DNA from: Escherichia coli
GTDB taxonomy: Bacteria; Pseudomonadota; Gammaproteobacteria; Enterobacterales; Enterobacteriaceae
Assembly (NCBI RefSeq): GCF_045037415.1
Contig: NZ_CP173438.1
Reading direction: 5' to 3' (one strand)
Length of the DNA stretch: 64,000 nt
Position 1 is the first letter of the stretch; each line of letters opens with the position of its first letter. Positions 41,893-64,000 of this stretch are shown here, piece after piece. The position numbers and the translations under genes are program-made. The notes under the pieces were generated by a model. That model saw nothing but the letters and a program-made list of their open reading frames with translations. It had not been told where the DNA came from and made no database searches.

Positions 41893-42889
41893 GCCCATCG
41901 TTTTTAGTGGCGCACAGCCCTCAGGTGAATTGACCATTGGTAACTACATGGGTGCGCTGCGTCAGTGGGTAAACATGCAGGATGACTACCATTGCATTTA
42001 CTGTATCGTTGACCAACATGCGATCACCGTGCGCCAGGATGCACAGAAGCTGCGTAAAGCGACGCTGGATACGCTGGCGTTGTATCTGGCTTGTGGTATC
42101 GATCCTGAGAAAAGCACCATTTTTGTTCAGTCCCACGTGCCGGAACATGCGCAGTTAGGCTGGGCATTGAACTGCTATACCTACTTCGGCGAACTGAGCC
42201 GCATGACGCAGTTTAAAGATAAATCTGCGCGTTATGCCGAGAACATCAACGCTGGTCTGTTTGACTATCCGGTGCTGATGGCAGCGGACATCCTGCTGTA
42301 TCAAACAAATCTGGTACCGGTGGGTGAAGACCAGAAACAGCACCTGGAACTGAGCCGCGATATCGCCCAGCGTTTCAACGCGCTGTACGGCGATATCTTT
42401 AAGGTGCCAGAGCCGTTTATTCCGAAATCTGGCGCGCGCGTAATGTCGCTGCTGGAGCCGACCAAGAAAATGTCCAAGTCTGACGATAACCGCAATAACG
42501 TTATCGGCCTGCTGGAAGATCCGAAATCGGTAGTGAAGAAAATCAAACGCGCGGTCACTGACTCCGACGAGCCGCCAGTAGTTCGCTACGATGTGCAGAA
42601 CAAAGCGGGCGTTTCCAACCTGCTGGATATCCTTTCTGCGGTAACGGGCCAGAGCATCCCGGAACTGGAAAAACAGTTCGAAGGCAAGATGTATGGTCAT
42701 CTGAAAGGTGAAGTGGCTGATGCCGTTTCCGGTATGCTGACTGAATTGCAGGAACGTTACCACCGTTTCCGCAACGATGAAGCCTTCCTGCAACAGGTGA
42801 TGAAAGACGGCGCAGAAAAAGCCAGCGCACACGCTTCCCGTACGCTAAAAGCGGTGTACGAAGCGATTGGTTTTGTGGCGAAGCCGTAA
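41885..42889 (+). CDS. trpS: Tryptophan--tRNA ligase
   Basis: 334 aa class I aaRS with KMSKS; overlaps gph stop. Confidence 0.96.
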
Positions 42890-42904
42890 TTTAACATTAA
42901 TGCC

Positions 42905-42932
42905 AAAAAAACCGGGGAAACCCGGTTTTTTT
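42905..42932 (+). terminator. Rho-independent terminator of the aroK...trpS transcription unit
   Basis: aaccggg-gaaa-cccggtt followed by tttttt. Confidence 0.75.
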
Positions 42933-43050
42933 ATCCTCATTTGCAATAATCCGAAAAAATGTGAAGCGCCTCGCCGTTTCCACATCTCGCTGTTGCGCCT
43001 TATCTTCAAATTCATGAAGATATAAACATTCATTTTATTGAAAATATATT

Positions 43051-43956
43051 ATGCGTCGAACGTTTATCAAAAAAGAAGGCGTCGTTATCACGACACTGGC
43101 CCGTTATTTGTTGGGTGAAAAGTGCGGTAATCGACTGAAAACCATAGATGAGCTGGCAACTGAATGCCGTTCATCGGTTGGCCTGACGCAGGCCGCGTTG
43201 AAAACGCTGGAATCAAGCGGAGCGATACGGATTGAACGCCGTGGGCGCAATGGCAGTTATCTGGTTGAGATGGATAACAAAGCATTGCTGACTCATGTGG
43301 ATATCAACAACGTGGTATGTGCGATGCCCTTGCCCTATACCCGTTTGTACGAAGGCCTGGCGAGCGGATTGAAAGCCCAGTTTGATGGCATTCCTTTTTA
43401 CTATGCGCATATGCGCGGCGCGGATATTCGCGTGGAGTGTTTACTTAACGGCGTGTATGACATGGCGGTGGTTTCGCGACTGGCGGCGGAAAGTTATCTC
43501 ACGCAAAAAGGATTATGCCTCGCGCTGGAGTTGGGACCGCATACCTACGTTGGCGAGCACCAGTTGATTTGCCGTAAAGGCGAGTCCGCAAACGTGAAGC
43601 GCGTGGGGCTGGATAACCGTTCGGCGGATCAGAAAATCATGACCGATGTCTTTTTTGGCGATAGTGATGTGGAACGAGTCGATCTCTCTTATCACGAGAG
43701 TTTACAACGCATTGTTAAAGGCGATGTTGACGCGGTTATCTGGAACGTAGTGGCGGAAAACGAACTGACCATGCTGGGATTAGAAGCGACGCCGCTCACA
43801 GACGATCCGCGATTTTTACAGGCCACCGAAGCCGTGGTCCTGACGCGAGTCGATGATTACCCAATGCAACAACTGCTGCGTGCAGTTGTTGATAAACATG
43901 CCCTGCTTGCTCATCAACAGCGAGTAGTCAGTGGGGAACAGGAACCCAGTTATTAA
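43051..43956 (+). CDS. yhfZ: Putative transcriptional regulator YhfZ
   Basis: 301 aa; N-terminal HTH-like region followed by a periplasmic-binding-protein-like fold; first gene of the yhf cluster. Confidence 0.8.
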   Translation: MRRTFIKKEGVVITTLARYLLGEKCGNRLKTIDELATECRSSVGLTQAALKTLESSGAIRIERRGRNGSYLVEMDNKALLTHVDINNVVCAMPLPYTRLYEGLASGLKAQFDGIPFYYAHMRGADIRVECLLNGVYDMAVVSRLAAESYLTQKGLCLALELGPHTYVGEHQLICRKGESANVKRVGLDNRSADQKIMTDVFFGDSDVERVDLSYHESLQRIVKGDVDAVIWNVVAENELTMLGLEATPLTDDPRFLQATEAVVLTRVDDYPMQQLLRAVVDKHALLAHQQRVVSGEQEPSY

Positions 43957-43972
43957 ACGAAAGGCATCTGAT

Positions 43973-44335
43973 ATGGAAACCAGACTCAACCTGCTTTGCG
44001 ATGCAGGCGTTATTGATAAGGACATCTGCAAAGGCATGATGCAGGTCGTCAATGTACTGGAAACAGAGTGCCATCTACCGGTGCGCAGTGAGCAAGGAAC
44101 GATGGCGATGACACATATGGCGAGTGCACTGATGCGCAGTCGCCGTGGTGAAGAAATAGAGCCGCTGGATGACGAATTGCTGGCGGAACTGGCGCAATCC
44201 AGCCACTGGCAAGCCGTTGTGCAATTGCATCAGGTATTGTTGAAGGAATTTGCACTGGAAGTTAACCCGTGTGAAGAAGGCTATTTGCTGGCCAACCTTT
44301 ATGGATTATGGATGGCTGCTAACGAAGAGGTTTGA
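43973..44335 (+). CDS. yhfY: YhfY, uncharacterized (PRD-like) protein
   Basis: 120 aa product starting METRLNLLCDAG inside the listed 134 aa frame. Confidence 0.75.
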   Translation: METRLNLLCDAGVIDKDICKGMMQVVNVLETECHLPVRSEQGTMAMTHMASALMRSRRGEEIEPLDDELLAELAQSSHWQAVVQLHQVLLKEFALEVNPCEEGYLLANLYGLWMAANEEV

Positions 44336-44418
44336 AGCTCCCGATAAATCCACGTCGTACAACCTAAATATTCAAAAAAATGAATATTTAATTCAAGGAA
44401 CAGAAACGAGGCAACAAG

Positions 44419-45582
44419 ATGTTTGTAGAAGCATTGAAACGCCAGAACCCGGCGCTGATTTCCGCCGCACTAAGTTTGTGGCAGCAGGGCAAGATCGCCC
44501 CGGACAGTTGGGTGATCGACGTGGATCAAGTTCTGGAAAACGGCAAGCGGCTGATTGAGACGGCGCGGCTTTACGGCATTGAACTGTATCTGATGACCAA
44601 ACAATTCGGTCGTAATCCGTGGCTGGCAGAAAAACTGCTGGCTCTGGGCTACAGCGGCATTGTGGCGGTGGATTACAAAGAGGCGCGAGTCATGCGCCGC
44701 GCCGGTTTGCCGGTAGCGCATCAGGGGCATCTGGTACAAATCCCTTGTCATCAGGTTTCTGACGCCGTTGAACAGGGAACCGACGTCATCACTGTGTTTA
44801 CCCTCGACAAAGCGCGGGAAATTTCTGCGGCAGCGGTGAAGGCCGGACGTGTGCAGTCTGTGCTGCTCAAAGTTTATAGCGACGATGATTTTCTTTATCC
44901 GGGGCAGGAGAGCGGTTTTGTACAGCATTCGCTGCACGAGGTGGTTGCTGAAATCCAGAATCTGCCGGGGCTACATTTGGCGGGACTTACCCATTTCCCT
45001 TGCCTGCTTTGGGATGAGGCTGCCGGGAAAGTTTTGCCGACACCGAATCTTCACACGCTGGTACAAGCACGGGATCAACTGGCGAAATCTGGTATTGCGA
45101 TTGAGCAACTGAACGCGCCTTCAGCGACCAGCTGCACGTCGCTGCCATTGCTGGTGGAATACGGTGTGACTCATACCGAACCCGGTCATGCGCTGACGGG
45201 CACTATTCCGGCAAACCAGCGGGGCGATCAGCCTGAACGTATCGCGATGCTCTGGTTAAGTGAAATCTCCCATCATTTCCGTGGCGACAGCTACTGCTAC
45301 GGCGGCGGTTACTACCGTCGTGGTCACGCGCAACATGCGCTGGTGTTTACGCCAGAAAATCAAAGAATTACTGAAACATATCTCAACGCCGTGGATGACA
45401 GCAGTATCGACTACACCCTGCCGCTGGCAGGCGAGCATCCGGTAAGCAGTGCAGTGGTGCTCTGTTTTCGCACGCAGATTTTTATCACCCGTAGCGATGT
45501 GGTGTTGGTGTCCGGTATTCACCATGGCGAACCAGAAATAGTTGGTCGTTATGACAGCCTCGGCAACCCTCTGGAGGCGTAA
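44419..45582 (+). CDS. yhfX: YhfX, fold-type III PLP enzyme (alanine racemase-like)
   Basis: 387 aa; matches recalled K-12 YhfX. Confidence 0.85.
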   Translation: MFVEALKRQNPALISAALSLWQQGKIAPDSWVIDVDQVLENGKRLIETARLYGIELYLMTKQFGRNPWLAEKLLALGYSGIVAVDYKEARVMRRAGLPVAHQGHLVQIPCHQVSDAVEQGTDVITVFTLDKAREISAAAVKAGRVQSVLLKVYSDDDFLYPGQESGFVQHSLHEVVAEIQNLPGLHLAGLTHFPCLLWDEAAGKVLPTPNLHTLVQARDQLAKSGIAIEQLNAPSATSCTSLPLLVEYGVTHTEPGHALTGTIPANQRGDQPERIAMLWLSEISHHFRGDSYCYGGGYYRRGHAQHALVFTPENQRITETYLNAVDDSSIDYTLPLAGEHPVSSAVVLCFRTQIFITRSDVVLVSGIHHGEPEIVGRYDSLGNPLEA

Positions 45583-46809
45583 ATGGCGCGATTTGTGGTG
45601 TTAGTGATTGATAGCTTTGGCGTAGGGGCAATGAAAGATGTCACGTTGGTGCGTCCGCAGGATGCCGGGGCGAATACCTGTGGTCACATCCTGAGCCAGT
45701 TGCCGCATTTGCAGCTACCAACGCTGGAGACGCTGGGGCTAATCAACGCATTGGGTTATGCGCCTGGCGATATGCAGCCGTCAGACTCCGCAACCTGGGG
45801 CGTGGCAGAGCTGCAACATGAAGGTGGCGATACCTTTATGGGGCATCAGGAAATTTTAGGTACGCGCCCATTACCGCCGCTGCGGATGCCCTTTCGTGAT
45901 GTGATTGACCGTGTTGAGCAGGCATTAGTTTCCGCTGGCTGGCAGGTTGAGCGTCGTGGCGATGATCTGCAATTTCTGTGGGTCAATCAGGCGGTTGCGA
46001 TTGGCGATAATCTCGAGGCGGATTTAGGTCAGGTCTATAACATCACCGCCAATCTCTCTGTGATCTCTTTTGACGACGCAATCAAAATGGGTCGTATCGT
46101 GCGTGAGCAGGTACAGGTCGGTCGGGTCATTACATTTGGTGGCCTGTTAACCGACAGCCAGTGCATCCTCGATGCCGCAGAAAGCAAAGAAGGGCGCTTT
46201 ATTGGTATCAATGCGCCGCGTTCTGGCGCCTATGACAACGGTTTCCAGGTCGTACATATGGGCTACGGTGTCGATGAAAAAGTGCAGGTGCCGCAAAAAC
46301 TGTATGAAGCGGGCGTGCCAACCGTGCTGGTGGGTAAGGTGGCAGATATCGTCAGCAATCCTTATGGCGTGAGCTGGCAAAACCTGGTGGATAGCCAGCG
46401 GATTATGGATATCACCCTCAACGAATTTAACACCTATCCGACGGCGTTTATTTGTACCAATATCCAGGAAACCGACCTCGCTGGTCATGCAGAAGACGTC
46501 GCACGTTATGCCGAACGTTTGCAGGTCGTTGACCGTAACCTTGCCCGGCTTGTTGAGGCGATGCAGCCAGATGATTGCCTGGTCGTGATGGCGGATCACG
46601 GTAACGATCCGACCATCGGTCACAGCCACCATACCCGCGAAGTGGTGCCAGTGCTGGTTTATCAGCAAGGACTGGTCGCTACGCAGCTCGGTGTGCGCAC
46701 CACGCTTTCTGATGTGGGGGCTACCGTGTGTGAATTTTTCCGTGCGCCACCGCCACAAAATGGTCGCTCTTTTCTTTCCTCCTTCCGGTTTGCAGGAGAC
46801 ACCCTATGA
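45583..46809 (+). CDS. yhfW: YhfW, phosphopentomutase-like metalloenzyme
   Basis: 408 aa; start 1 bp after yhfX stop. Confidence 0.85.
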
Positions 46810-47684
46810 GTTTTGATCCGACGGGCTACACCCTCGCCCATGAGCATCTGCATATTGATCTTTCCGGCTTTAAAAACAACGTGGACTGCCGCCTTGATCA
46901 GTATGCGTTCATTTGCCAGGAGATGAACGACCTGATGGCCCGGGGCGTGCGTAATGTGATTGAGATGACCAACCGTTACATGGGGCGCAATGCGCAATTT
47001 ATGCTCGATGTAATGCGCGAAACCGGGATCAACGTGGTGGGCTGTACCGGTTATTACCAGGACGCGTTTTTCCCGGAACATGTGGCGACCCGCAGCGTGC
47101 AGGAACTGGCGCAGGAGATGGTCGATGAAATTGAGCAGGGTATCGATGGCACTGACCTGAAAGCCGGAATTATCGCGGAGATCGGCTCCAGCGAAGGGAA
47201 GATTACGTCGCTGGAAGAGAAGGTGTTTATTGCCGCCGCGCTGGCGCATAACCAGACCGGACGCCCGATCTCCACGCATACGTCGTTCAGCACGATGGGG
47301 CTGGAGCAACTGGCTCTGTTGCAAGCCCACGGAGTTGATCTTTCGCGCGTCACCGTCGGCCACTGCGATCTGAAAGACAATCTCGACAACATTTTGAAGA
47401 TGATCGATCTCGGCGCGTATGTGCAGTTCGACACCATCGGCAAGAACAGTTACTACCCGGACGAAAAGCGCATTGCGATGCTCCATGCGCTACGTGACCG
47501 TGGGTTGCTGAACCGCGTCATGCTGTCGATGGATATTACGCGGCGCTCTCATTTAAAAGCCAACGGTGGTTATGGCTATGACTTTTTATTGACCACCTTT
47601 ATTCCGCAATTGCGCCAGTCAGGATTCAGTCAGGCCGATGTGGATGTGATGTTACGTGAAAATCCCTCTCAATTTTTCCAATAA
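46806..47684 (+). CDS. php: Phosphotriesterase homology protein (amidohydrolase superfamily)
   Basis: 292 aa; N-terminal HxH metal ligands ([10 protein letters not shown]); overlaps yhfW stop. Confidence 0.9.
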
Positions 47685-47694
47685 GGACAGACTC

Positions 47695-48048
47695 ATGAAA
47701 AAGATTGGCGTTGCAGGCTTACAGCGTGAGCAGATTAAAAAAACCATTGAAGCGACGGCTCCTGGCTGTTTTGAAGTTTTCATTCACAACGACATGGAAG
47801 CGGCAATGAAAGTGAAATCCGGACAACTGGATTACTACATCGGCGCGTGTAATACCGGTGCGGGCGCAGCCTTGTCGATTGCTATCGCGGTGATTGGCTA
47901 TAACAAAAGTTGCACCATTGCCAAGCCGGGCATTAAAGCGAAAGACGAACATATCGCCAAAATGATCGCTGAAGGAAAAGTGGCGTTTGGCCTTTCCGTT
48001 GAGCACGTTGAACACGCGATTCCGATGCTGATTAACCATCTAAAATAA
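47695..48048 (+). CDS. yhfU: YhfU, small uncharacterized protein (DUF2620-like)
   Basis: 117 aa product starting MKKIGVAGLQ inside the listed 130 aa frame. Confidence 0.8.
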   Translation: MKKIGVAGLQREQIKKTIEATAPGCFEVFIHNDMEAAMKVKSGQLDYYIGACNTGAGAALSIAIAVIGYNKSCTIAKPGIKAKDEHIAKMIAEGKVAFGLSVEHVEHAIPMLINHLK

Positions 48049-48059
48049 AAGGCACGACT

Positions 48060-49364
48060 ATGGATCTGTATATTCAGATTATCGTGGTGGCGTGCCTGAC
48101 GGGTATGACATCGCTTCTGGCGCATCGCTCGGCGGCCGTTTTTCATGACGGTATCCGCCCGATCCTGCCACAACTGATTGAAGGCTATATGAACCGTCGC
48201 GAGGCGGGGAGCATCGCTTTTGGTCTGAGCATTGGTTTTGTGGCCTCGGTGGGGATCTCTTTTACCCTGAAAACCGGGCTGCTCAACGCATGGTTACTCT
48301 TTCTTCCTACCGATATCCTCGGCGTACTGGCGATAAACAGCCTGATGGCGTTTGGTCTTGGTGCTATCTGGGGAATATTGATCCTCACCTGTCTGTTGCC
48401 AGTAAACCAGCTGCTGACCGCGCTACCGGTGGATGTATTAGGTAGCCTGGGGGAATTAAGCTCGCCGGTGGTTTCAGCTTTTGCACTGTTCCCGTTGGTG
48501 GCGATTTTCTACCAGTTTGGCTGGAAGCAAAGTCTGATCGCCGCCGTGGTGGTACTGATGACTCGTGTGGTGGTAGTACGCTATTTCCCACATCTTAACC
48601 CTGAATCCATCGAAATCTTTATTGGCATGGTGATGCTGCTGGGGATCGCAATAACTCATGACCTGCGTCATCGTGATGAAAATGATATCGATGCCAGCGG
48701 TATGTCGGTGTTTGAAGAGCGTACATCACGGATTATCAAAAACTTACCGTATATCGCCATCGTGGGTGCATTGATTGCTGCCGTTGCCAGCATGAAGATT
48801 TTCGCCGGTAGTGAAGTGTCGATCTTCACACTGGAGAAAGCGTACTCCGCAGGCGTAACGCCGGAACAATCGCAAACACTAATCAACCAGGCGGCACTGG
48901 CAGAATTTATGCGCGGGCTGGGTTTTGTGCCGTTGATTGCCACCACGGCGTTAGCCACCGGCGTGTATGCAGTTGCGGGCTTTACCTTTGTTTATGCGGT
49001 GGGCTATCTCTCGCCGAATCCGATGGTTGCAGCGGTATTAGGCGCAGTGGTTATTTCGGCGGAAGTCTTGCTGCTTCGTTCTATCGGCAAATGGTTGGGG
49101 CGCTACCCGTCGGTACGTAATGCGTCGGATAACATCCGTAACGCCATGAATATGCTGATGGAAGTGGCGTTGCTGGTCGGTTCGATCTTTGCAGCAATCA
49201 AAATGGCGGGCTATACCGGATTCTCTATCGCGGTTGCCATTTACTTCCTCAACGAATCCCTGGGCCGTCCGGTACAGAAAATGGCGGCACCGGTCGTGGC
49301 AGTAATGATCACCGGCATCCTGCTGAATGTTCTTTACTGGCTTGGCCTGTTCGTTCCGGCTTAA
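48060..49364 (+). CDS. yhfT: YhfT, inner membrane permease-like protein
   Basis: 434 aa strongly hydrophobic polytopic ORF. Confidence 0.85.
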   Translation: MDLYIQIIVVACLTGMTSLLAHRSAAVFHDGIRPILPQLIEGYMNRREAGSIAFGLSIGFVASVGISFTLKTGLLNAWLLFLPTDILGVLAINSLMAFGLGAIWGILILTCLLPVNQLLTALPVDVLGSLGELSSPVVSAFALFPLVAIFYQFGWKQSLIAAVVVLMTRVVVVRYFPHLNPESIEIFIGMVMLLGIAITHDLRHRDENDIDASGMSVFEERTSRIIKNLPYIAIVGALIAAVASMKIFAGSEVSIFTLEKAYSAGVTPEQSQTLINQAALAEFMRGLGFVPLIATTALATGVYAVAGFTFVYAVGYLSPNPMVAAVLGAVVISAEVLLLRSIGKWLGRYPSVRNASDNIRNAMNMLMEVALLVGSIFAAIKMAGYTGFSIAVAIYFLNESLGRPVQKMAAPVVAVMITGILLNVLYWLGLFVPA

Positions 49365-49375
49365 GGAAGGCACCT

Positions 49376-50461
49376 ATGAAGACGTTTCCTCTGCAAAGCC
49401 TGACGCTTATTGAGGCGCAGCAAAAGCAGTTTGCGCTGGTGGACACGATTTGCCGTCATTTTCCTGGCAGCGAGTTTCTTACCTGCGGTGATTTGGGCTT
49501 AACGCCGGGGCTAAATCAGCCCCGCATTACCCAGCGTGTGGAACAGGTGCTGGCTGACGCGTTTCACGCACAGGCCGCGGCGCTGGTACAGGGCGCGGGT
49601 ACTGGCGCGATCCGTGCGGCGCTGGCAGCTTTGCTCAAATCGGGGCAGCGTCTTCTGGTGCATGACGCGCCGGTTTATCCAACGACGCGCGTCATTATTG
49701 AGCAGATGGGGCTAACGCTCATTACGGCTGATTTCAATGATCTGTCGGCACTGAAGCAGGTTGTTGACGAGCAACAACCTGATGCCGCGCTGGTGCAGCA
49801 TACGCGCCAGCAGCCGCAGGACCGCTATGTGCTGGCAGACGTGCTGGCAACGTTGCGCGCGGCAGGTGTTCCAGCGTTAACCGATGACAACTATGCGGTG
49901 ATGAAGGTAGCGCGAATCGGCTGCGAATGCGGGGCGAATGTGTCGACATTTTCCTGCTTCAAGCTATTTGGGCCAGAGGGCGTTGGTGCGGTGGTAGGCG
50001 ATGCCGATGTTATTAGCCGGATTCGCGCCACGCTCTATTCCGGCGGCAGTCAGATTCAGGGGGCGCAGGCATTAGAGGTGTTGCGTGGTCTGGTGCTCGC
50101 GCCAGTGATGCACGCGGTGCAGGCGGGGGTATCTGAACGGTTGCTGGCTTTGCTTAACGGCGGCGCGGTGGCGGAAGTGAAAAGCGCCGTCATTGCCAAT
50201 GCACAGTCGAAGGTATTGATTGTGGAGTTTCATCAGCCGATTGCCGCCAGAGTGCTGGAAGAGGCGCAGAAACTCGGTGCCTTGCCTTACCCGGTTGGTG
50301 CAGAGTCGAAATATGAAATCCCGCCGCTCTTTTATCGACTTTCCGGAACGTTTCGCCAGGCGAATCCGCAGTTAGAACATTGCGCGATTCGCATTAACCC
50401 AAATCGCGGCGGTGAAGAGACGATATTGCGGATCTTGCGTGAAAGTATTGCCAGCATTTAA
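49376..50461 (+). CDS. yhfS: YhfS, PLP-dependent aminotransferase-like protein
   Basis: 361 aa; last gene of the yhf cluster. Confidence 0.85.
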   Translation: MKTFPLQSLTLIEAQQKQFALVDTICRHFPGSEFLTCGDLGLTPGLNQPRITQRVEQVLADAFHAQAAALVQGAGTGAIRAALAALLKSGQRLLVHDAPVYPTTRVIIEQMGLTLITADFNDLSALKQVVDEQQPDAALVQHTRQQPQDRYVLADVLATLRAAGVPALTDDNYAVMKVARIGCECGANVSTFSCFKLFGPEGVGAVVGDADVISRIRATLYSGGSQIQGAQALEVLRGLVLAPVMHAVQAGVSERLLALLNGGAVAEVKSAVIANAQSKVLIVEFHQPIAARVLEEAQKLGALPYPVGAESKYEIPPLFYRLSGTFRQANPQLEHCAIRINPNRGGEETILRILRESIASI

Positions 50462-50568
50462 TCGTTGTAAACGATATTTTCGAAAAGAATGCAGAAACAA
50501 ATACGCCCTCGGATAACTCCGAGGGCGTCAGGCAATTAAACCGGCGTTAGCCGATTTCTGTCAGAGAC

Positions 50569-50736
50569 TTACTGTGCAGTCGGACCGCAACCGCCAATGA
50601 TTTTAGAAATAGAAATTGCCGGGTGCAGCAGGTAGTCGTAAGAGCAGTTCTTATCACGGTTTTCAATATGACCAGTACATGCAGTTAACGTAGCCAGTAC
50701 TGCGCCTACCAGTGCAACTTTAATAAATTTGTTCAT
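50569..50736 (-). CDS. yhfL: Small lipoprotein YhfL
   Basis: Not in ORF track (55 aa): minus-strand translation MNKFIKVALVGAVLATLTACTGHIENRDKNCSYDYLLHPAISISKIIGGCGPTAQ with lipobox LTAC. Confidence 0.85.
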   Translation of the reverse strand: MNKFIKVALVGAVLATLTACTGHIENRDKNCSYDYLLHPAISISKIIGGCGPTAQ

Positions 50737-50957
50737 TTACATTCCCTATGTATTATATATTAATTAATATTCATTGATTATATGAATATAAGCAGACTGC
50801 TCATTAAGAACGATACAGGAATATTCAATTAGCGTCAGTGAGCGATTGGCTTAATTTTGTAAGTTGCTGTAACGGTGAATATAACCCATTAGCAGACAAT
50901 ATTTATTAAGGGGTTATATTTTTATCTGCTGAATATATAAAGAGAGTTGTAAACGAA

Positions 50958-50985
50958 AAAGGCCAGACTTCTCTGGCCCTGGTTA
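50958..50985 (-). terminator. Rho-independent terminator downstream of cysG
   Basis: ggccagag-aagt-ctggcc hairpin followed by a T-run on the minus strand. Confidence 0.6.
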
Positions 50986-50987
50986 AA

Positions 50988-52361
50988 TTAATGGTTAGAG
51001 AACCAGTTCAATTTATCGCGCAGGCCAACAACCCGACCAATAATAATTAGCGATGGACTGTTCATTTGCTGCGCCAGTTCGCCCAGCTGCGTGAGCGTAC
51101 CGTCAATCACGCGCTGCGTGACTGCCGTTCCGTTTTCGACAATTGCTACCGGCATTTCACCAGGCATACCGTATTCAATCAGCTTTTGCTGAATAGTTGC
51201 AGCCTGATTCAGCCCCATATAAAACACCAGCGTCTGTTTTTCTGCCGCCAGGTTTTCCCAGTCCAGCTCGCCACCGGTTTTTAAGTGTCCAGTAATTAAG
51301 CGTACGCTCTGGGCATAATCGCGATGCGTGAGCGGAATACCCGAATAGGCAGAGCAACCAGAGGCTGCGGTAATACCCGGAACCACCGAGAATGGAATAC
51401 CCGCGTTGCACAGTGTTTCCAGCTCTTCGCCACCACGGCCAAAAATAAACGGATCGCCGCCTTTCAGCCGCACCACGCGTTTGCCTTTTTGCGCTTCCCG
51501 CAGCAGGATCTGGTTAATCTCTTCCTGCGGTACGCAGTGGTATCCCGCGCGTTTGCCGACGAAAACGCGATCAGCATCGCGGCGTACCAGATTCATAATA
51601 TCGTCAGAAACCAGACGGTCGTAGACCACCACATCTGCCTGCTGAATTTGTTGCAGACCTTTCAGTGTCAGCAGCCCGGCATCGCCCGGACCTGCACCAA
51701 CCAGCACCACTTCACCGCGATGATCGAGCGGTTCATTGATTAACTGTTCGGTGGTTTCAGTAATGGCTTTCTGATCGTTGTTGGCCAGCGACTGCGCCAG
51801 GCGGTCATTAACGAACAATTTCTCCCAGAAACGGCGACGCTCACCCATCGTGGCGAACTGTTGTTTCACTCGCCCGCGTAATTGCCCGGCGTATTTCGCT
51901 ACCTGGCCCAGATGTAACGGCAGCAGTGATTCGAGTTTTTCGCGCAACAGGCGCGCCAGAACCGGAGAGGTGCCGCCAGAGGAAACCGCTACCATGAGCG
52001 GCGAGCGGTCAATAATCGACGGCATAATAAAGCTGGCGGCTTTCGGCGCATCGACCACGTTACAGAAGATGCGACGAGCTTCAGCGGCTTCGCTGACGCG
52101 CTGGTTAAGCGCGTCATCATCCGTCGCTGCAATCGCCAGCCAGCAGGTGTCGAGAAGGCTTTCATCAAATGGCCCTTCGACGAGGGTTAACATGCCTGCA
52201 TCTGCCCATGCGGTGAACTGTGGAATAAACGCTAATGCATTCACCGTTAAGCGAGCGCCTGCGTCTAACAGCAACCTTGCTTTGCGTTCCGCGACATCAC
52301 CACCGCCGACAATCAGACAGTCGCGATCGCGTAATTGGCAAAATATAGGCAAATGATCCAC
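50988..52361 (-). CDS. cysG: Siroheme synthase (uroporphyrinogen-III methyltransferase / dehydrogenase / ferrochelatase)
   Basis: 457 aa; N-terminal Rossmann plus C-terminal SUMT domain. Confidence 0.95.
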
Positions 52362-63437: not shown

Positions 63438-64000
63438 TTAACGAGTGCCGTAAACGACGATGGTTTTACCGTGTGCGGAGATCAGGTTCTGATCTTCCAG
63501 CATCTTCAGAATGCGTCCCACGGTTTCACGAGAACAGCCGACAATCTGACCGATTTCCTGACGGGTAATTTTGATTTGCATACCGTCCGGGTGAGTCATA
63601 GCATCCGGTTGTTTTGCCAGATTCAGCAGAGTCTGTGCAATGCGGCCCGTCACGTCGAGGAACGCCAGGTTGCCCACTTTCTCTGAAGTGACTTGCAGAC
63701 GACGCGCCATCTGTGCAGACAGACGCATCAGAATGTCCGGGTTTACCTGAATCAATTGGCGAAATTTTTTGTACGAAATTTCAGCCACTTCACAGGCGGT
63801 TTTCGCACGTACCCATGCGCTACGTTCCTGGCCCTCTTCAAACAGGCCCAGTTCGCCAATAAAATCACCCTGATTCAGATAGGAGAGGATCATTTCTTTA
63901 CCCTCTTCGTCTTTGATCAGCACTGCCACAGAGCCTTTAACGATGTAGTACAGCGTTTCCGCTTTTTCACCCTGGTGAATAAGCGTGCTCTTGGATGGGT
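63438..64000 (-). CDS. crp: cAMP receptor protein CRP (5' end lies beyond window end)
   Basis: Minus-strand frame reads ...[54 protein letters not shown]...[30 protein letters not shown]; about the first 20 codons are outside the window. Confidence 0.96.

Follow-up and report, generated by a model that had tools for sequence, protein, structure and literature searches.

The yhfZ-yhfS genes of Escherichia coli as a possible catabolic operon for a sugar derivative, with an unclassified transporter

Within a 64,000-nucleotide stretch of an Escherichia coli genome (contig NZ_CP173438.1; the window, in what follows) lie eight same-strand genes, yhfZ, yhfY, yhfX, yhfW, php, yhfU, yhfT and yhfS, which encode a regulator, a small PRD-like protein, four enzymes and a membrane protein with its small cytoplasmic partner. 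Their neighborhoods in other bacteria and their conserved catalytic residues lead us to propose, tentatively, that they constitute a substrate-inducible system for the uptake and catabolism of an amino-sugar derivative, with glucosamine 6-phosphate (GlcN-6-P) as its end point. The substrate is most likely an amino sugar bearing an ester-, lactone- or amide-linked substituent together with a phosphate. This cluster is among the largest function-unassigned gene blocks left in E. coli; crystal structures are available for four of the eight proteins. Its assignment would close a long-standing gap in the metabolic map of E. coli, reveal a nutrient on which gut enterics, marine vibrios, Fusobacteria and Bacillota draw, and define the mechanism of a transporter family that lacks structural relatives. 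The present analysis restricts the search, which had extended to any amino compound, to amino-sugar derivatives ending at GlcN-6-P, and both the natural variants of the cluster (split modules, and versions with an amidase or nagB) and a candidate operator can be used experimentally.

The cluster and its gene names were already known. New are its anatomy across phyla, the link to nagB, a candidate operator and two folds, RpiB-like in YhfU and orphan in YhfT. An earlier reading made from the sequence alone had placed these genes in no pathway; we likewise found no assignment in the open-access literature. Php is listed as being of unknown function by Kim et al. 2010 as well as in a 2021 review, and a 2025 paper refers to YhfZ as a 'putative transcription factor'.

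Gene neighborhoods and encoded proteins

A scan of one genome per species with an alignment of DUF2620, the domain of YhfU, identified relatives in 405 genomes and yielded 80 loci. A metagenome scan supplied 80 further loci, and with loci from distant YhfT representatives and two annotated plasmids the total came to about 170; gene orders were obtained from tblastn searches with the eight proteins. The strongest functional clue in these loci is the adjacency of nagB, which is found inside or beside the cluster in five separate lineages, together with some close relatives, and in several gene orders (genes being denoted hereafter by the last letter of their yhf names, and individual loci by L numbers). 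They are Vibrio comitans with the order Y-X-W-nagB-U-T, Thalassobacillus with S-W-X-nagB, and metagenomic loci in which nagB is positioned just 5' of yhfZ (L116-118), in the order X-HAD-nagB (L143-148) or directly after W (L152 and L154). All six NagB proteins tested pass the TIGR00502 model, with 285-411 bits against a cut-off of 237. We rank this clue first because a single-copy gene would be expected by chance within 10 kb of the cluster in well under one lineage (about 0.1-0.3 by our own estimate).

The sequence-only reading had envisaged import and breakdown of an amino-sugar or amino-acid conjugate, and several neighbors besides nagB lend support to this idea. In nine Vibrionaceae loci a phosphotransferase system (PTS) of the Lac/Cel family (EIIB-EIIC-EIIA), a DUF7916 protein and a porin are encoded directly 5' of yhfZ on the same strand (L057 3504-7579); the DUF7916 protein (296 amino acids) has no match in PDB or NCBIfam. 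In Photobacterium a 731-residue protein with a chitin-binding type-3 domain follows yhfW, and in some loci a galactose-mutarotase-like protein and serine hydrolases of the PBP4B/AmpH family adjoin nagB. Outside Proteobacteria an amidase-family gene is a regular ninth member of the cluster. Three unrelated phosphatase families (Cof-type HAD, ComB-like and PTP-like) are also represented near clusters; the PTP-like protein, of 262 amino acids, is inserted between yhfZ and yhfY in the metagenomic lineage L097-L109 (L106 8774-9562) and has a relative in PDB entry 8DHI (E = 8e-33). The HPr and Enzyme I genes immediately 3' of the cluster in one Bacillota genome point in the same direction. So does V. 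comitans, which encodes a sulfatase and an anaerobic sulfatase-maturating radical-SAM enzyme between php and Y-X-W-nagB-U-T (L065 1953-4967), a hint at a sulfated amino sugar in that species. Tartrate dehydrogenase and a ComB-like phosphatase, being single-locus neighbors, were given no weight, and the Yersinia neighbors hmp, glyA, hcaT, glrR and nadE are housekeeping genes that are uninformative as context.

The eight genes that had been called from sequence alone form a real cluster, as borne out by the list of open reading frames (ORFs) and the RefSeq annotation, and by their clustering also in other Enterobacterales, Vibrionaceae, Fusobacteriota and Bacillota. The order in Enterobacteriaceae is Z-Y-X-W-php-U-T-S, always between trpS and cysG; in Yersinia it is Z-Y-X-php-U-T and in Vibrionaceae Z-Y-php-U-T-X-W. 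Fusobacteriota, Bacillota and most metagenomic loci display the order Z-(Y)-U-T-amidase-php-S-X-W, or a version with php and the amidase swapped, and a Cetobacterium plasmid is annotated with the amidase-containing order. In three Enterovibrio species the cluster is divided over two loci, Z-Y-php-U-T and U-T-X-W, both of which include a U-T pair (L049/L074, L052/L053 and L054/L071), and Photobacterium (L055/L056, L051) possesses the full cluster along with a second Z-php-U-T copy approximately 13 kb away. The cluster can be separated into two modules, Php with U-T and X-W with U-T, which are always present together in a genome. A plasmid of Bacillus thuringiensis (L006, L092) carries the variant PRD-U-T-php-S-X, without yhfW or yhfZ; in L006 (11.8-16.4 kb) the cluster is followed by three ATP-grasp-like genes, an MFS transporter and galE.

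As judged by sequence comparison, the yhf proteins belong to their respective superfamilies in fold and in cofactor- or metal-binding residues but fall short of the curated cut-offs of their characterized relatives, and on account of these failures they should not be filed in those functional families. YhfX matches Ala_racemase_N (E = 7.8e-22) and retains the pyridoxal phosphate (PLP)-binding Lys61 in all 16 members compared. Its nearest solved relatives are alanine racemases, which are reached only at E = 5e-5 even with the family profile, but it scores only 29 bits against the Orr model (cut-off 480), thereby failing the equivalog-level test for a racemase, and its C-terminal domain (YhfX-like_C) is family-specific. 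YhfW scores 735 bits against NF009049, a model built on YhfW orthologs themselves, and 140.8 bits against the deoB model TIGR01696, whose cut-off of 341.2 it fails. Nevertheless, D10, D83, T/S84, H88, D298, H302, D338, H339 and H350, i.e. all the phosphopentomutase metal ligands and the Thr/Ser nucleophile, are kept in 20 diverse members. Php obtains 650 bits with NF007373 but fails both the model of its nearest characterized family, the phospho-furanose lactonases (NF045706; 96.4 bits, cut-off 630), and the OPH model (95 bits, cut-off 500). Its binuclear metal center (H12, H14, E125, H158, H186 and D243) is invariant in 27 members, as is a cluster formed by K213, Y216 and R222.

In YhfS, Lys196 and the D170/D171 pair are invariant in nine members, and by analogy these would be the PLP-binding lysine and the aspartate contacting the pyridine nitrogen. 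With the family profile its nearest solved relatives are methionine gamma-lyase and YnbB-type C-S lyases (E = 3e-10, over residues 42-241 only), and its best NCBIfam match, at 41.6 bits, fails the family-level cut-off of 549.7. YhfX (4KBX) and YhfS (4J8L) have been deposited as 'uncharacterized', Php (1BF6 and 4LEF) under a hypothetical/uncharacterized or homology-only name, and the C-terminal effector domain of YhfZ (2OZZ) as a 'hypothetical protein'. The domains assigned from sequence alone match ours overall, and require refinement at three points: YhfY is a weak PRD match only, YhfS is nearer to lyases of Cys/Met metabolism than to aminotransferases, and YhfU, which had been described as a small protein, is RpiB-like.

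The yhfU and yhfT genes form an obligate pair in 25 of the 26 lineages. YhfU adopts an RpiB-like fold and contains an invariant Cys52 within the motif D-Y-Y-x-G-A-C-x-x-G-x-G-x-A. An internal repeat in YhfT is weakly supported. Five database entries (P0003, P0006, P0012, P0076 and P0109; 480-705 amino acids) show YhfT fused to Php, YhfU or YhfS domains and, given that the junctions of these genes measure 10-11 bp, such entries are probably frameshifts or gene-calling artifacts.

The proposed pathway and competing explanations

From the gene content, the conserved catalytic residues, the fold of YhfU and the neighborhood statistics we infer a pathway along the following lines. YhfZ would bind sites of the form ATnTTCA-N6-TGAAnAT, two of them over its own promoter and one before yhfX, until a pathway intermediate releases it, and the co-transcribed PRD-like YhfY, with its invariant His48, may modulate this control. 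Uptake would be carried out by the membrane protein YhfT working with the cytoplasmic YhfU, a pairing apparent from gene neighborhoods, with Cys52 of YhfU either carrying phosphate like a PTS EIIB or acting catalytically. Php is predicted to hydrolyze the substituent or the ring, and outside Proteobacteria the amidase-family enzyme could perform a second hydrolysis. The racemase-like YhfX and the lyase-like YhfS would then act at the amine-bearing carbon, either in epimerization at C2 of the sugar or on a released amino acid. YhfW, given its conserved catalytic residues, would shift the phosphate of its presumed substrate via a phospho-Thr84 intermediate, and the resultant GlcN-6-P would enter central metabolism via the housekeeping NagB, as suggested by the neighborhoods.

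This proposal is supported by the fact that the nearest characterized family of Php hydrolyzes phosphorylated sugar lactones, and that php overexpression opens a route to a phosphorylated four-carbon keto acid: it rescues a pdxB deletion via an uncharacterized route to 2-oxo-3-hydroxy-4-phosphobutanoate (Kim et al. 2010). It is further supported by the invariance of the YhfW catalytic residues and of the Php metal ligands and Lys/Tyr/Arg cluster. Several specific substrates were considered, namely mannosamine phosphates, muramic delta-lactam, bacillithiol, N-acetylglucosamine-asparagine (GlcNAc-Asn), D-alanyl teichoic-acid units and lipid A sugars; none has discriminating support and none is claimed.

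A number of observations weigh against the proposal. The adjacency of nagB is seen in only five of the 26 lineages and never in Enterobacterales, and in E. coli itself the cluster lacks the amidase and has no nagB linked to it. Alpha-amino acids, rather than sugars, are the substrates of the enzymes to which YhfX and YhfS are most closely related. The characterized relatives of Php open lactones to aldonates, which cannot be turned into GlcN-6-P. The separate loci of Enterovibrio and Photobacterium suggest that the enzymes may serve parallel routes instead of sequential steps. Neither an inducing condition nor a mutant phenotype for the cluster was found in the open-access literature. Other objections concern the transporter. 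PTS-like uptake by YhfT-YhfU is favored by the PRD-like partner, the invariant cysteine and a single ptsHI adjacency, in which the HPr and Enzyme I genes lie directly 3' of the cluster (Bacillota locus L003 only). Against it, YhfU shows far greater similarity to RpiB isomerases than to the EIIB proteins of the PTS, YhfT yields no fold assignment from PDB or the AFDB sample and resembles no solved EIIC, and no EIIA-like gene was seen in any cluster, making this mode of uptake doubtful in our view.

A bolder version of the proposal would see in YhfT-YhfU, with YhfY as the sensor, an unrecognized class of sugar-uptake systems: a membrane protein with a new fold would be teamed with a cysteine protein of RpiB fold, and the two might work as a PTS-like group translocator whose phosphocarrier is non-canonical. 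After uptake, the enzymes of the cluster would constitute a route not described before, with PLP chemistry and a phosphopentomutase-type shift, from a cell-wall or chitin amino-sugar conjugate to GlcN-6-P. We regard this extended version as rather unlikely.

The distant kinship of Php with lactonases could also be accommodated in an amino-aldonate or lactone route resembling D-glucosaminate catabolism. Here a 2-amino-2-deoxy-aldonolactone or acid would be imported, possibly with phosphorylation, Php would open the phospho-lactone, and epimerization by YhfX or elimination from the alpha-amino/beta-hydroxy acid by YhfS would give a 2-keto-3-deoxy-phospho-acid; this would be split by a housekeeping aldolase (e.g. 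Eda), with YhfW adjusting the position of the phosphate. Such a route would be in keeping with the phospho-furanose lactonases being the nearest characterized family of Php, with the closeness of YhfX and YhfS to alpha-amino-acid enzymes and with the 2-oxo-3-hydroxy-4-phosphobutanoate obtained upon php overexpression. It is also in line with the weak match of YhfY to the PRD protein of the EF_0829 cluster and with an analogous Enterococcus faecium cluster that has an amidohydrolase, a DgaE-family ammonia-lyase and a KDGP aldolase (PMC11934601). We nonetheless consider it improbable: an aldolase or DgaE-type gene was seen in none of the approximately 170 loci, and the recurrent nagB would be left without a role. 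Moreover, assays of E. coli Php are reported to have yielded no substrate, which also counts against this route.

The racemase-like character of YhfX and the regular presence of the amidase would also suit the salvage of cell-wall fragments centered on an amino acid. The substrate would in that case be a D-amino-acid conjugate, such as a D-alanyl or aminoacyl ester of a teichoic-acid sugar or polyol phosphate, or a muramic-acid or peptidoglycan fragment, from which Php or the amidase frees the amino acid for racemization by YhfX and degradation by YhfS; YhfW and the phosphatases would take the phospho-sugar or polyol, with GlcN-6-P as a by-product. The recruitment of three phosphatase families agrees with this, as do the hydrolases of the PBP4B, AmpH and D-aminopeptidase families that adjoin the cluster in several loci and the UgpB-type ABC system next to it in the Bacillota loci L003 and L004. 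However, free D- or L-alanine requires no dedicated operon, PBP4B-like genes occur in only two of the 26 lineages, and nothing in the sequences identifies the amino acid. We deem this explanation no more probable than the amino-aldonate route, and it is largely a special case of the catabolism of an amino-sugar derivative proposed above.

The split loci of the three Enterovibrio species, each with a U-T pair, and the extra Z-php-U-T of Photobacterium invite the further explanation that two independent systems merely share a neighborhood: Php with a transporter for import and a single hydrolysis, and YhfX-YhfW with a transporter for another compound, the two being fused under one regulator in E. 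coli. However, genomes with a split or extra module always carry the other module too, and the contiguous junctions of 0-16 bp in most lineages of four phyla are what is expected for one pathway, so that we hold two systems to be slightly less probable still. A literal reading of the annotation names, in which one enzyme is a phosphotriesterase that detoxifies organophosphates and another a phosphopentomutase of nucleoside or pentose metabolism, has only homology-based naming in its favor and is highly improbable, given the scores of YhfW (140.8 against the deoB cut-off of 341) and Php (95 against the OPH cut-off of 500), the absence of nucleoside genes from every neighborhood examined and the presence of deoB elsewhere in E. 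coli. Uptake and catabolism of an amino-sugar derivative ending at GlcN-6-P thus remains the explanation that we provisionally prefer.

Block boundaries, transcription units and candidate operators

The gene calls (Table 1) come from the ORF list and from the RefSeq annotation of an identical E. coli stretch, which are in agreement. The block is situated between trpS and yhfL/cysG; several complete E. coli genomes match its 7.4 kb with 100% identity, and of the 5426 complete genomes of this species 5061 (about 93%) carry at least 80% of the block. A hairpin bounds it on either side: that just past the trpS stop is a perfect 12-nucleotide inverted repeat with an A run and a T run at its flanks, and the one between the convergent yhfS and yhfL has a T run on the yhfL side only. 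A consensus scan detected no convincing intrinsic terminator on the plus strand inside the block. The hypothesis of a foreign island was discarded, as GC content (0.49-0.57 inside the cluster, 0.50-0.55 in the flanks) gives no signal for it. An Rfam scan of positions 42500-51200 returned no riboswitch or leader RNA above threshold, and the predictions of a riboswitch-prediction paper (PMC4448311) fall 5-12 kb away from the operon.

Table 1. Genes, boundary hairpins and candidate operators of the yhf block (window coordinates)
Feature	Position	Strand	Description
yhfZ	43051-43956	+	transcription regulator, HTH_41 + YhfZ_C ligand-binding domain (ORF list, RefSeq annotation)
yhfY	43973-44335	+	stand-alone PRD-like protein, 120 amino acids
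yhfX	44419-45582	+	fold-type III PLP enzyme, Ala_racemase_N + YhfX-like_C
yhfW	45583-46809	+	phosphopentomutase-like metalloenzyme, alkaline-phosphatase superfamily
php	46806-47684	+	binuclear-metal hydrolase, phosphotriesterase (PTE) family
yhfU	47695-48048	+	DUF2620, 117 amino acids, cytoplasmic, RpiB-like fold
yhfT	48060-49364	+	polytopic membrane protein (PF10797), presumed permease; always 3' of yhfU
yhfS	49376-50461	+	fold-type I PLP enzyme + YhfS-like_C
trpS terminator hairpin AAAAAAACCGGG/CCCGGTTTTTTT	42905-42932		upstream block boundary
hairpin ACGCCCTCGGA/TCCGAGGGCGT	50503-50528		downstream boundary, between convergent yhfS and yhfL
candidate operator 1 TATCTTCA-N6-TGAAGATA	43001-43022		46 bp 5' of yhfZ ATG; perfect 8+8 palindrome
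candidate operator 2 AACATTCA-N6-TGAAAATA	43025-43046		22 bp 5' of yhfZ ATG
candidate operator 3 AATATTCA-N6-TGAATATT	44367-44388		yhfY-yhfX gap, 48 bp 5' of yhfX ATG

Regarding the intergenic distances, yhfZ and yhfY are separated by 16 bp and yhfY and yhfX by 83 bp, yhfX abuts yhfW (0 bp), yhfW and php overlap by 4 bp, and the remaining junctions measure 10 bp (php/yhfU), 11 bp (yhfU/yhfT) and 11 bp (yhfT/yhfS). The statement that the junctions overlap or span 1-12 bp hence holds for the six genes from yhfX to yhfS but not for the yhfY-yhfX gap, which contains a conserved palindrome. This is one of three candidate operators that have the core TTCA-N6-TGAA in common, the pair upstream of yhfZ being perfect or near-perfect palindromes. 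Candidate operator 2 overlaps the sole promoter-like hexamers 5' of yhfZ, TAAACA-16-TATATT (43023-43050). The exact core is present four times in the window, against a shuffle mean of 1.33, with three of the four in the two non-coding gaps of the cluster; the fourth, at 63966-63979 (TTCACCCTGGTGAA), is far from it. A further palindrome upstream of the minus-strand yhfL, ATATTCAT-N7-ATGAATAT (50767-50789), has operator-like arms with another spacing and may be due to chance in AT-rich DNA.

Upstream of yhfZ, TTCA-N6-TGAA is observed in nearly all Enterobacteriaceae loci and in Yersinia, Vibrionaceae and Sebaldella. Operator 1 recurs at an unchanged position in almost every Enterobacteriaceae locus, its arms being conserved and its spacer variable; the counterpart of operator 2 lies 5' of yhfZ at a distance of 22-32 bp in Vibrionaceae and of 42 bp in Sebaldella. 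Escherichia, Citrobacter and Trabulsiella share an identical operator 3, and Pluralibacter and Vibrio mediterranei have a similar site 5' of yhfX. As the motif co-varies with yhfZ across phyla, the simplest reading is that it is likely the YhfZ operator. YhfZ itself scores 373 bits against NF041241 (cut-off 260) and matches HTH_41 and YhfZ_C in Pfam. YhfY matches the Pfam PRD weakly (E = 0.004) and TIGR03582 with 27.9 bits, which is below the cut-off; its His48 and Arg55 are invariant in an alignment of five diverse sequences, and homologs in other loci carry precomputed PRD matches. A YhfY-like ORF is present in 79 of 91 loci, normally adjoining yhfZ, and is missing from the extra cluster copies, a pattern of co-travel that fits a regulatory pair.

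The operon table of PMC4448311 lists php, yhfS, yhfT, yhfU, yhfW and yhfX as one unit without yhfZ and yhfY. This, together with the overlap of operator 2 with the promoter-like hexamers of yhfZ and the position of operator 3 before yhfX, suggests that there are probably two co-regulated transcription units, yhfZY and yhfXW-php-UTS. The earlier picture of one tightly coupled cluster is therefore right as to contiguous same-strand genes, and needs qualification in that the transcription units are probably two and that Php with U-T and X-W with U-T stand as separate loci in some genomes.

The region downstream of yhfS varies among strains. In many of them the fructoselysine genes frlABCDR are located between yhfS and yhfL, but they are absent here. 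The contiguous yhfS-yhfL junction (50461-50570) is found in only 2105 of 5426 complete genomes; in the remainder the match breaks near position 50493, where strain 639 has frlR-D-C-B-A inserted. A functional link to frl, which adjoins yhfS in K-12, was rejected, for frl is missing from the window, from 39% of the complete genomes of E. coli and from the surroundings of the cluster in the other genera sampled. One E. coli genome (H17, NZ_CM132304.1) has an IS1 transposase inserted within yhfS-yhfL-cysG (50200-51100).

Comparison with known systems

The D-glucosaminate system dgaABCDEF of Salmonella, attributed to Miller and colleagues in 2013, reportedly comprises a PTS permease, the PLP-dependent ammonia-lyase DgaE and the aldolase DgaF. 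An uncharacterized enterococcal cluster has the composition SFCGS-DUF4312-DUF4311-DUF4310-amidohydrolase-DgaE-KDGP aldolase (PMC11934601). Like the yhf cluster as interpreted here, both would combine dedicated uptake with a metal-dependent hydrolase and with PLP-dependent reactions of an amino-sugar derivative. Further resemblance of the enterococcal cluster to yhf lies in a small PRD protein (to which YhfY gives the weak TIGR03582 match), a small glycine-rich cysteine-containing cytoplasmic protein and membrane proteins, the likeness of YhfT and YhfU to DUF4310, DUF4311 and SFCGS being one of description. In contrast to both, the yhf cluster lacks an aldolase and a DgaE/SelA-type lyase, possesses a phosphomutase and a fold-type III PLP enzyme, and has nagB rather than a KDPG-type aldolase as its recurrent partner.

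Phospho-sugar lactonases of the PTE family are known from Mycoplasma and Listeria, according to a passage of PMC10971088 that cites Korczynska et al. 2014. In these and in the ula system (the UlaABC PTS with the phospho-lactonase UlaG) a transporter is followed directly by a hydrolase that opens a phosphorylated sugar lactone, an arrangement comparable to that of yhf. Php belongs to the same PTE family and keeps its metal ligands, but its score of 96 bits lies far below the 630-bit cut-off of these lactonases, and YhfT is unrelated to any solved EIIC. The metals of Php are reportedly bridged by Glu125 and not by a carboxylated lysine, an observation attributed to Buchbinder and colleagues in 1998. 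YhfW shares with DeoB the fold, the metal ligands and the Thr nucleophile motif G-x-D-T-x-x-G-H-x-E; it differs in that the phosphopentomutases in PDB align best over residues 235-401, and in a context of amino sugars rather than nucleosides. The RpiB/LacAB isomerases and the PTS EIIB proteins are also to be counted among the systems closest to yhf.

In E. coli the murQ and murP genes are laid out together with yfeW, which encodes PBP4B. The nag operon and murQ-murP-yfeW resemble the proposed yhf system in their end point at GlcN-6-P and NagB, and in the co-location of PBP4B-like genes with sugar uptake. The yhf clusters are set apart from both by having no NagA-type deacetylase, MurQ etherase or classical PTS permease, and we would accordingly place them beside these operons, with due reserve, as a catabolic operon for a sugar derivative that is served by an unclassified transporter.

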